Sequence record: MW250786
Strand: one strand, 5' to 3'
Length of the DNA stretch: 64,000 nucleotides
DNA from: Escherichia phage UPEC06
Part shown: positions 19,907 through 20,581 of the stretch, piece after piece
Position numbering within the stretch: the first letter of the stretch is position 1
Layout of the letters: each line of letters opens with the position of its first letter
The notes under the pieces: generated by a model
What the model was told of the DNA's origin: nothing
The model's database searches: none
Seen by the model: the letters and a program-made list of their open reading frames with translations, nothing else
Position numbers and translations under genes: made by a program

Positions 19907-20219
19907 TTAAATATGTAAGATTATTTTGTTGCCTGAGAGATTAGTCATCTTGAAGGCTGGGTGGGCAAATATATGTTGGAACCAATATACCACCGACGCG
20001 ATTTACGCTTTTGGTTGACTGCGACTAAATGGGATGCCCAGTCCATCCCTGTGTATATCGGGGAGCCGTCGAAGATCGTCTGATTAGTGATTTACGGATC
20101 ACTATAGTTTTACTACCACGACAATCTTTTACGGTGTACCCCTTGTCATGATGACGAGGTTTAAGGTTATCCTGTCGTTAAATATCCAAAACCTGTCACC
20201 ACCCACAAGAGAATTTAGC

Positions 20220-20298
20220 GCGGGTGTATCTCAACGGTCTTCTAAACCGTCGTTAATCGAGTAATTGGAGTATGAAGGTTCGAGTCCTTCCTCCCGCG
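20220..20298 (+). tRNA. tRNA-like element, non-canonical (possible degenerate tRNA; anticodon-like loop UCU)
   Basis: Canonical T-arm GAAGG-TTCGAGT-CCTTC and 6/7 acceptor pairing, ACGGT-CTTCTAA-ACCGT stem-loop, but no normal D-arm. Confidence 0.3.
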
Positions 20299-20317
20299 CT
20301 AAGTTCTTTTGAATATA

Positions 20318-20392
20318 GGCCCTGTAGCTGGACGGTTCAAGCAAGCGACTCATAATCGCCAGACGGTGGTTCGATTCCACCCAGGGCCACCA
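20318..20392 (+). tRNA. tRNA-Met/Ile2 (anticodon CAT)
   Basis: Acceptor GGCCCTG/CAGGGCC, loop CTCATAA, T-arm GGTGG-TTCGATT-CCACC, encoded CCA. Confidence 0.7.
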
Positions 20393-20526
20393 TATGAAGT
20401 CGGGTCGCTCCCGATAAGTCGTCGGACTGATGTTCCCTGACTACGAGTTCCCTCAACGATAACGACGTAGATCACAGCAGAAACGGCGCACCCTATTTCA
20501 TTTCTTAATACATTTCAATAAGTTCT

Positions 20527-20555
20527 TGACATAATCCTATTATACTGCTAATATA
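20527..20555 (+). promoter_or_regulatory. sigma70-like promoter (near-consensus)
   Basis: TTGACA, 17-nt spacer, TAATAT, about 25 nt upstream of the GAGGTG SD and ATG at 20582. Confidence 0.5.
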
Positions 20556-20581
20556 GTTATATCTACTGAATTGAGGTGTTT

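Follow-up and report, generated by a model that had tools for sequence, protein, structure and literature searches.

This report concerns two stretches of DNA, at positions 19907-20217 and 20393-20526, that flank the first transfer RNA (tRNA) genes in 64,000 nucleotides (nt) of Escherichia phage UPEC06 (sequence record MW250786; the whole length is called the window). The region matches Escherichia phages A7_1 (98.7%), LTH01, A5-4, A73 and W70, which are myophages of 137-145 kb filed under Vequintavirinae. Neither stretch is annotated in the record of any of these five relatives, and in the LTH01 record tRNA-Met is the sole annotated feature at this locus. The original prediction held both to be non-coding, and this was borne out: no open reading frame (ORF) of at least 60 amino acids (aa) overlapped either stretch on either strand, the longest being 40-49 aa, and neither ARAGORN nor Rfam at E<=10 found a recognisable tRNA in them. 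The features of the locus are listed here by position in the window.

19893-19921, + strand: promoter P1, sigma-70 type (TTGACA-17-TAAGAT; 10/12 in the scan)
19928-20058, + strand: clade-specific 5' leader, with predicted hairpins at 19931-19957 and a predicted multibranch fold at 19959-20048
20059-20145, + strand: RNA domain A, 87 nt, four helices (from covariation and RNAalifold)
20059-63 with 20139-45, + strand: helix P0 of domain A
20065-69 with 20131-35, + strand: helix P1 of domain A
20071-80 with 20120-29, + strand: helix P2 of domain A
20085-20104, + strand: hairpin P3 of domain A, with a UACG tetraloop
20149-20194, + strand: RNA domain B, a hairpin at 20149-20180 plus a conserved tail
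20207-20219, + strand: 5' strand of a stalk, containing AAGAGAAUUUA, which equals an 11-mer of the ribosome-binding region of T4 gene 30.9
20220-20298, + strand: non-cloverleaf tRNA(UCU), Rfam tRNA 35.8 bits (gathering threshold, GA, 29)
start of 20220-20298, + strand: acceptor stem of 7 bp with U:U at 6:67, then UAU
20230-32 with 20259-61, + strand: helix X, its 5' strand followed by A
20234-50, + strand: anticodon arm with loop CUUCUAA, and CGUUAAUC between the arm and the 3' strand of helix X
20274-90, + strand: T arm, lying beyond a D-loop-like UAAUUGGAGUAU that follows the 3' strand of helix X; the acceptor 3' strand comes next
20299-20310, + strand: 3' strand of the stalk, CUAAGUUCUUUU, complementary to 20207-20219
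20318-20392, + strand: tRNA with anticodon CAU and encoded CCA (ARAGORN; Rfam 60.3 bits)
20393-20492, + strand: homologue of T4 rnaD (species 2), short form (from blastn and RNAalifold)
20526-20554, + strand: promoter P2 (TTGACA-17-TAATAT with TG extension), kept in relatives

The two stretches had been placed between a coding operon and a near-consensus promoter at 20527-20555. The downstream promoter exists, at 20526-20554 and with a score of 10/12 (P2), and the ORF it serves starts at ATG 20582 with the Shine-Dalgarno (SD) sequence GAGG. The first stretch, though, starts with a promoter of its own, P1, which the original prediction missed and which is by its sequence as good as P2. P1 overlaps the stop codon of the small upstream coding sequence (CDS), its predicted start lies near G19928, and both of its hexamers were invariant in the alignment of the five relatives. 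With P1 at its start, stretch 1 appears to be the leader of its own unit and not the tail of the upstream operon. A scan for GC-rich hairpins followed by T-runs found no terminator-like site on the + strand from 19300 to 21900; the first strong one was at 22109-22130, after the last tRNA.

The non-coding segments were 94-100% identical to the window in A5-4, LTH01 and A73 (the last without domain B), and the CDS directly upstream, 19736-19906, had 67-73% DNA identity in the same three phages. This conservation, including that of parts kept in hundreds of unrelated phage genomes, shows that the pattern is not due to chance. The CDS itself (+ strand) encodes a cysteine-rich protein of 56 aa with C-x2-C-type motifs and no Pfam match, and it is far more divergent than its surroundings although the conserved P1 is embedded in its 3' end. 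The leader between P1 and domain A was 94-98% identical in relatives; its fold had a minimum free energy of -40 kcal/mol (z = -2.0), and the predicted multibranch part includes GGGAUG/CAUCCC at 20031-20049.

Downstream of the leader, the window segment 20054-20194, which holds domains A and B, matched 776 phage records, nearly all of them T-even, at 79-88% identity. In T4 and RB69 the A/B match falls between rIII and gene 30.9, in a gap of 244-263 bp that carries no annotation, and has the orientation of those genes. Outside the T-evens, A/B was found within the tRNA cluster of phiWec187 (phi92-like) and of loci L022 and L023, between tRNA-Gly and tRNA-Gln, and PsgM04F has the 5' part only (domain A), between tRNA-Gln and tRNA-Pro. 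In each of these four tRNA-cluster cases A/B is on the tRNA strand. A host or plasmid origin was rejected, as searches of 5,426 E. coli genomes and 72,556 plasmids gave no match to A/B. Scans of IMG/VR and metagenomes for domain A gave few loci, chiefly of T-even and phi92 type, and five metagenome false positives. Rfam 15 searched with cmscan at E<=10 gave no family over 19907-20217, and Rfam had no match at the homologous loci of T4, RB69, a JS98-like locus and PsgM04F. We found no description in the literature of an RNA in the T4 rIII-30.9 region.

The original prediction had suggested that the stretches could encode small RNAs and that a structure and covariance search would be informative. 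For stretch 1 this search revealed a structured RNA domain on the + strand that is supported by covariation. In domain A, helices P0, P1 and P2 are stacked and the P3 hairpin branches off an asymmetric junction, whose unpaired J2/3 (UGAU) and J3/2 (UAGUUUUACUACCAC) are conserved. The four-helix model was specified and compared with 20 distinct domain A sequences (alignment A6). In this alignment 98.9% of the cells were paired and 6 pairs had changes on both sides; when the 3' partners were slid by 1-3 columns as a control, 27-60% were paired with 0-1 two-sided changes. The compensatory pairs were an A-U to G-C change in P0, G-C to A-U via G-U in P1, C-G to U-A in P2 and three more in P3. RNAalifold recovered the same helices unaided. 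P3 is capped by UNCG-type tetraloops (UACG or UGCG) among the homologues, and in the window clade P2 has 2 additional bp, from matching 2-nt insertions in each of its strands. These paired indels, together with a 5-nt insert, break all reading frames of domain A. G:U pairs were invariant at columns 11:86 and 17:80, and U:G was frequent at 25:72; on the other strand these would be C:A mismatches, and this, with the constant orientation, argues for an RNA read from the + strand. By-eye comparison rejected two known motifs in domain A, a hammerhead ribozyme (CUGAUUA lacks the essential G8) and a K-turn or box C/D (no matching D/C partner).

Domain B is highly conserved in sequence over the T-even, phi92-like and window clades. 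Its hairpin, of 10 bp (UGAUGAC[G]AGG / CCUGUCGUUA) with an 11-nt loop, is weakly supported as a structure. The bulged G lies on the 3' strand in the T4 type (GACGGG...CCUGGUCG) and on the 5' strand in the RB69/window type (GACGAGG...CCUGUCG), and the switch is coupled to an A-U to G:U change that preserves the helix. A pseudoknot between the loop and the tail, GGUU (20165-68) with AACC (20190-93), is possible; these bases are invariant. Two other candidates for domain B were dropped: a promoter, since sigma-70, T4 early (GTTTAC-type), MotA-box middle and late (TATAAATA) elements had spacings of 13-15 nt or mismatches, and DnaA boxes, since TTATCCTGT and ATATCCAAA matched at 6-7 of 9 positions, which was taken as chance.

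A and B are separable modules. PsgM04F lacks B, some T-evens carry B alone, and the gap between the two is 9, 14, 58-65 or 165-167 nt in different phages. The T-even A-B junctions hold extra modules of ~51 nt or ~153 nt, at loci L005, L019, L007, L032, L039 and L041 of JS98-type T-evens and at L001, L008, L011, L012, L024 and L036 of the RB69 type. The 51-nt module contains a B-like repeat (GGUUAUCUGUCUAAGUCG versus GGUUAUCCUGUCGUUAAAU) and the 153-nt module has no Rfam match; the T-even rIII-30.9 gap behaves as a landing pad for RNA modules.

In the T-even rIII-30.9 region, as in the window, A is followed by B in the same orientation, with 80-88% identity to the window in the two domains, and the AAGAGAAUUUA junction is held in common. 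The settings differ: A/B lies in a tRNA operon leader in the window and between two protein genes in the T-evens, where there is also an upstream hairpin and a terminator-like hairpin with a U-run, neither of which the window has. P0 is GGGG/CCCC in the window, where P2 is the longer by 2 bp, and GAGG/CCUC in the T-evens. On the 3' side of B, the T-evens and phi92-like phages have the terminator-like hairpin with its U-run and then the ribosome-binding site of 30.9, AAAAGAGAAUUUAUAAUG; the window has GUCACCACCCAC in place of the hairpin and keeps the 11-mer AAGAGAAUUUA at 20207-20217, a position at which the T4 counterpart is AAAAGAGAAUUUAUAAUG. Among known elements, the PeSL cassettes of T4-type phages, which consist of a short stem-loop and an early promoter (TTTACW-N17-TAYWAT), are likewise intergenic and shuffled between genomes at gene boundaries (PMC4122927). 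A/B differs from them in being ~140 nt with several helices and in having no early promoter within it by scan and by reading.

The 11-mer forms part of a stalk around the next gene. Positions 20207-20226 pair with 20291-20310 over 20 bp, with one U:U and two G:U, and so extend the acceptor stem of tRNA(UCU); this pairing is also visible in a Plastid-psbJ-1 pseudo-hit from Rfam. The member of the tRNA(UCU) family at locus L078 has a perfect stalk of 19 bp. By analogy, such stalks may be processing stalks of RNase III type. In the known ones, those of rRNA operons and the T7 early mRNA sites, complementary flanks of ~20 bp enclose a stable RNA as they do here and, with 18 bp, around the RNA candidate at 20980-21100; the putative stalk of the window differs from them in including the tRNA acceptor stem itself. 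Processing sites, which the original prediction had also allowed for, are plausible since the RNAs directly adjoin tRNAs and a stalk of 20 bp surrounds tRNA(UCU). The 11-mer AAGAGAATTTA occurs in exactly two copies in the 64 kb, at 20207-20217 and 21088-21098 (+ strand). Both are in the stable-RNA region, one in the 5' stalk strand at tRNA(UCU) and the other in a 3' strand at an RNA candidate at 20980-21100; recombination at microhomology and a shared processing signal are both candidates for its recurrence.

The two genes inside the locus had been described simply as the first tRNAs. This holds for 20318-20392, which is canonical, and not for 20220-20298, which is abnormal: in the Rfam RF00005 alignment its D-arm is deleted, 4 nt replacing the 15-nt arm, and 20 nt are inserted in the variable region. 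ARAGORN at default settings missed this gene. With relaxed settings it reported a 92-nt 'tRNA-Arg(tct)' with a poor acceptor stem, which was dropped in favour of the Rfam register. Related sequences were found in 269 phage records, annotated 'tRNA-OTHER' or unannotated, from Felixounavirus, T5-like, phi92-like and Mydovirus phages, 350-kb jumbo phages and Streptomyces Karimacvirus, and a core-pattern search gave 58 IMG/VR loci with the family. CCA is encoded in most members; the window clade has CUA instead.

An alignment of 39 distinct sequences of the family (A8) was used to examine the fold. In A8, 94.6% of the cells were paired, with two-sided changes in 17/21 pairs; slid controls gave 32-46%. 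The acceptor (7 bp), anticodon (5 bp, 7-nt loop with U33 and a purine at 37) and T (5 bp, GTTCRA loop) stems covary, with 96-99% of their cells paired, and the anticodon loop CUUCUAA (anticodon UCU) is invariant. No canonical D-arm (stem 10-13:22-25) was found between the acceptor and anticodon arms of 20220-20298. The anticodon arm is instead enclosed by helix X, of 3-4 bp between columns 11-13/14 and 39/40-42, in which the pairs 11:42, 12:41 and 13:40 were 100% paired, with types UA/AU/GC and CG/GC/UA. Its variants were CUC/GAG, CGC/GCG, CAC/GUG, CUU/AAG, CAUC/GAUG, CAGC/GCUG and CACA/UGUG. The alternative partner GGAG (columns 48-51, invariant) was rejected, being unable to pair with the CAC, CGC and CAG variants. 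The segment 3' of helix X, GUAAUUGGA, is nearly identical to the end of the D-stem and the D-loop of T4 tRNA-Arg(UCU), GUAAUGGA. We infer an internal circular permutation, in which the D-5' strand and D-loop were relocated to a place after the variable region. The order would then have changed from acceptor, D-5', D-loop, D-3', anticodon arm, variable region and T arm to acceptor, D-3', anticodon arm, variable region, D-5', D-loop and T arm. Such a permutation could leave the L-shape intact, the displaced D-loop still presenting its GG to the T-loop.

The D-arm-less natural tRNAs described in a review resemble this RNA in having a connector in place of the D-arm, an extended anticodon branch and AGN codons (PMC7609411). 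The phage tRNA(UCU) differs from them in its full canonical T arm and 7/5 acceptor branch, and in the covarying helix of 3-4 bp around the anticodon arm followed by a D-loop-like GG, which suggests rewiring and not loss. That review, from 2020, treats natural non-canonical tRNAs without mention of phages or of permutation (PMC7609411). The allo-tRNAs and (8/4) tRNAs are also non-canonical, occur in phage tRNA clusters and are mis-called by gene finders, but the 8/4 and 9/3 tRNAs retain D-arms (Mukai et al., PMC5389517); they change the split between acceptor and T stems, whereas tRNA(UCU) keeps 7/5 and rewires the D region. A limited literature search found no description of a D-arm-rewired phage tRNA, and a prior report may exist.

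The most likely role for tRNA(UCU), which we would put at about even odds, is to decode AGA and AGG as arginine. In tRNA clusters of 15-26 genes that include it, Arg(ACG) is present and a canonical Arg(UCU) occurs only in L078. In the ORFs of the window, AGA accounts for 7.75 and AGG for 3.2 of every 1000 codons, which is several-fold above E. coli usage. The empty Arg(UCU) slot, this codon usage and the encoded CCA in most members all support a decoding role. The RNA might instead stay out of translation, as a mimic (a decoy for an anticodon nuclease or another tRNA-targeting defence) or as a processing signal. Phage tRNAs are known as counter-defence tools, the architecture is non-canonical, and the subclass in the window lacks CCA and is locked in a 20-bp stalk, all of which would suit such a use. 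Most members, however, have CCA, a 7/5 acceptor/T branch and the invariant CUUCUAA loop, the family fills an otherwise empty UCU slot in large tRNA sets, and the D-loop-like GGA with C35/U36 fits the identity elements of arginyl-tRNA synthetase. We regard a role outside translation as unlikely.

The second tRNA, tRNA(CAU), was the first of five found in the window by ARAGORN, which called it tRNA-Met(CAU), and it is 100% identical in relatives. It has a G1-C72 pair and hence is not an initiator; it may be the Met elongator or an Ile2 species that depends on lysidine and reads AUA. The window has 7.1 ATA per 1000 codons.

Stretch 2 begins at the next base. The T4 record has rnaD (species 2, 119 nt) and rnaC (species 1, 139 nt) annotated after tRNA-Arg, and local blastn aligned rnaD nt 10-53 with 20401-20443 (91%, E = 5e-13) and nt 95-119 with 20468-20492 (96%, E = 1e-7). 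When 20393-20500 was compared with 50,697 phage records, 813 records matched, almost all of them Straboviridae, and in RB68 and RB3 the matches fall under annotated 'rnaD'. The central part in the window is not T4's but a shorter form that Karamvirus, Jiaodavirus and Citrobacter phage Ursula also have. With five short-form members, a small alignment, RNAalifold gave 30 pairs, 7 of them compensatory, and a consensus fold of a 5' hairpin, a closing stem CGUCG/CGGCG and an inner hairpin. The homologue begins at 20393, immediately 3' of the CCA of tRNA(CAU); rnaD begins 1 nt after tRNA-Arg in T4 and lies between tRNA-Lys and tRNA-Asp in Ursula. Rfam scans at the gathering threshold and at E<=10 gave no family for this stretch. 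The window copy thus shares with T4 rnaD the tRNA strand, the place directly 3' of a tRNA and the closing stem, and with rnaC and rnaD alike the status of a non-tRNA RNA within a phage tRNA operon. It differs in its length (~100 versus 119 nt), in following tRNA(CAU) and not tRNA-Arg, and in belonging to a non-T-even phage. By blastn, rnaC had no significant similarity to the window or to A/B; the only shared word was the 7-mer UCGAGGA. A 2022 paper on the T4 transcriptome lists RNAC and RNAD as 'RNAs of yet unknown functions' (PMC9697503). By homology, stretch 2 is a further member, outside the T-evens, of this known and functionally unexplained family. The suggestion of small RNAs thus fits both stretches on comparative evidence, a homologue of rnaD in the second and a structured RNA in the first.

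We consider it probable that 19893-20554 is a single stable-RNA unit of sigma-70 type, without a terminator, in a Vequintavirinae-like coliphage, and that both stretches are RNA genes or domains within it. Host RNA polymerase would start at P1, near 19928, and the precursor would carry, in order, the leader, A, B, the stalked tRNA(UCU), tRNA(CAU) and the rnaD homologue; with no terminator before 22109, it would run on into the P2 unit. RNase P would cut the 5' ends of both tRNAs, 3' trimming would come next, and RNase III would probably cut the stalks. As tRNAs mature by RNase P cleavage and 3' trimming, the flanking RNAs would necessarily be released, giving a leader RNA of ~290 nt with A and B and an rnaD RNA of ~100 nt. 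These would be long-lived because they are tightly folded, as is the case for rnaC and rnaD in T4. The comparisons establish homology, strand, covariation, conservation of the promoter and the lack of coding potential; for the RNAs of this unit, transcription, cleavage sites and stability are inferred.

Several results weigh against this reading. Single-sequence folding of A/B gave z = -2.2 on the + strand and z = -4.5 on the - strand, and the rnaD homologue gave z = -1.2 on the + strand; since these + strand folds are unremarkable, the strand call rests on the G:U pairs and the orientation to neighbouring genes. A6 is shallow, with an effective sequence number of 1.09 and many close T-even rows, so that shuffle statistics overstate its support. 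Neither a covariance model of A nor nhmmer turned up additional members when run over 587 kb of other phage tRNA loci. There is no base-pair covariation in B, and a 60-nt deletion removes B in A73 and W70, where it is hence dispensable. The leader at 19928-20058 had no homologue beyond the five close relatives. The window copy of tRNA(UCU), without encoded CCA and with its U:U mismatch, could be decaying.

What A/B does within the unit is a matter of lower confidence. The unpaired nucleotides of A/B are as conserved as its helices, and so our low-confidence guess is that it is an autonomous recognition domain. The released RNA may bind a host or phage factor, a suggestion we rate somewhat below an even chance; the conserved unpaired junctions, and retention in three unrelated phage backgrounds that share only the host, would suit recognition of a host factor or a widely shared one. 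The main rival to recognition by a released RNA is that A/B acts purely in cis, as a leader or regulatory cassette (a sensor, an attenuator, or a processing or stability module) for the payload downstream. A/B always lies directly upstream of a payload in the same orientation: gene 30.9 in the T-evens, a 43-aa ORF in the phi92-like phages and the stalked tRNA in the window. The terminator-like hairpin and U-run of the T-evens and phi92-like phages, followed by the conserved ribosome-binding site, would suit such a cassette, as would the 11-mer that the window keeps exactly at the junction, and in the A6 model the coaxial P0-P1-P2 stack of ~20 bp appears to resemble an RNase III site. However, in the window the terminator-like part is absent and an RNA serves as payload, which means that the expression platform has not been conserved. 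In PsgM04F, A stands before a different downstream sequence, a simple nuclease site would not need conserved unpaired nucleotides, and no ligand or alternative pairing was identified. A purely cis-acting role thus seems unlikely, although it is the strongest of the alternatives considered.

The stretches might also be non-functional debris, namely remnants of horizontally acquired T-even DNA and decayed tRNA genes hitch-hiking in a tRNA region. The A/B cassette does look imported, as it includes the ribosome-binding site of 30.9, and the local tRNA(UCU) with its defects and the loss of B in two relatives could be read in the same way. Debris would not be expected to be more conserved than the neighbouring genes, as these stretches are, or to maintain base pairing across variants, and both A/B and rnaD persist across hundreds of phage records (776 and 813). 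We regard debris as improbable.

Still less probable is that the conserved sequence acts as DNA, as a recombination hotspot, a homing-endonuclease target, a protein-binding site or a shuffled promoter. It moves between unrelated phage families and lies in plastic regions beside endonuclease genes (a PD-(D/E)XK ORF at 21184 in the window, HNH and SegB near other tRNA clusters), the A-B junction is an insertion hotspot, and B is conserved in primary sequence without covariation. Domain A, however, has compensatory changes in four helices, G:U pairs that on the other strand would turn into C:A mismatches and a UNCG-type tetraloop (UACG, UGCG) on P3; the orientation always follows transcription, and no sigma-70 or T4 early, middle or late promoter fits A or B when compared with the consensus.

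That the stretches encode small proteins is scarcely credible: ORFs of 30-43 aa are present on both strands, but they lack a proper SD, every frame is disrupted by indels between homologues (1, 2 and 5 nt), and the 'hypothetical protein' calls over these regions in other records are mutually inconsistent. The six-frame search for short peptides that the original prediction had proposed covered ORFs of at least 15 aa and gave no convincing SD; the sole SD-like match among the small ORFs was AAGG, 4 nt before GTG at 19961. Conserved short protein genes filling the gaps, the finding that would have told against the prediction, were looked for and not found, given the lack of SD sequences and the frame-breaking indels.

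The rest of the tRNA region contains further candidates, all on the + strand. The RNA candidate at 20980-21100 would be a third structured RNA that is not a tRNA, with three hairpins in an 18-bp stalk (AAGUUUUCUUUAAGGUAG / CUACCUUAAAGAGAAUUU). Homologues at 75-92% were found in 178 records, lying directly 3' of tRNA-Ser in Phapecoctavirus ukendt and the phi92-like VivaForever; ARAGORN and Rfam gave no match, and no RNA annotation was present in five close relatives spanning the whole element. The 170-nt spacer between tRNA-Tyr and tRNA-Pro, 21650-21819, holds two conserved pieces (~21650-21730 and 21724-21819) that are unannotated in other Vequintavirinae, Stephanstirmvirinae and Mydovirus (116 records). 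The PsgM04F counterpart of the first piece is a sub-threshold tRNA match of 21.3 bits, and 21740-21806 gave a tRNA-Sec-like Rfam match of 19 bits; the pieces are probably degenerate tRNA-like RNAs. Another sub-threshold Rfam match, to YrlA (Y RNA-like; 42.5 bits, GA 69), spans 21841-21957, from the end of tRNA-Pro to the start of tRNA-Gly, and most likely arises artefactually because the YrlA model includes a tRNA-like module. Between these RNAs, 21184-21561 is a 125-aa ORF that matches the PD-(D/E)XK endonuclease family PF11645 (E = 1.9e-21). Endonuclease genes recur beside such RNA clusters (SegB in T4, HNH in Roth50 and Ursula), which fits the region as a hotspot of horizontal exchange.

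Of the objects in the region, tRNA(UCU) is the most unusual; stretch 2 is ordinary in kind, and stretch 1 holds a missed promoter and an undescribed structured RNA held in common with T4. We propose only tentatively that two things hold together, that tRNA(UCU) is a functional arginine tRNA with an internally permuted core and that A/B is a new trans-acting structured RNA, unannotated in T4. T4, the best-studied phage, has ~140 nt at rIII-30.9 forming a conserved, covarying RNA structure that is in neither its annotation nor Rfam, and tRNA operons of unrelated coliphages have acquired the A/B domain. A/B offers a concrete new way into a question 50 years old, namely what the T-even stable RNAs other than tRNAs (rnaC and rnaD) do, and the occurrence of rnaD outside the T-evens argues for a host target over T4-specific machinery. 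Several hundred phage records leave such RNAs unannotated or under spurious 'hypothetical protein' calls. If the tentative proposal is true, the tRNA(UCU) of the window would be the first natural non-cloverleaf tRNA on bacterial ribosomes, and the permuted tRNA would be spread over Felix-O1-like, T5-like, phi92-like, rV5-like, jumbo and Streptomyces phages. Its family would challenge the view that all tRNAs working in bacteria are cloverleaves and would provide a natural scaffold for tRNA engineering.

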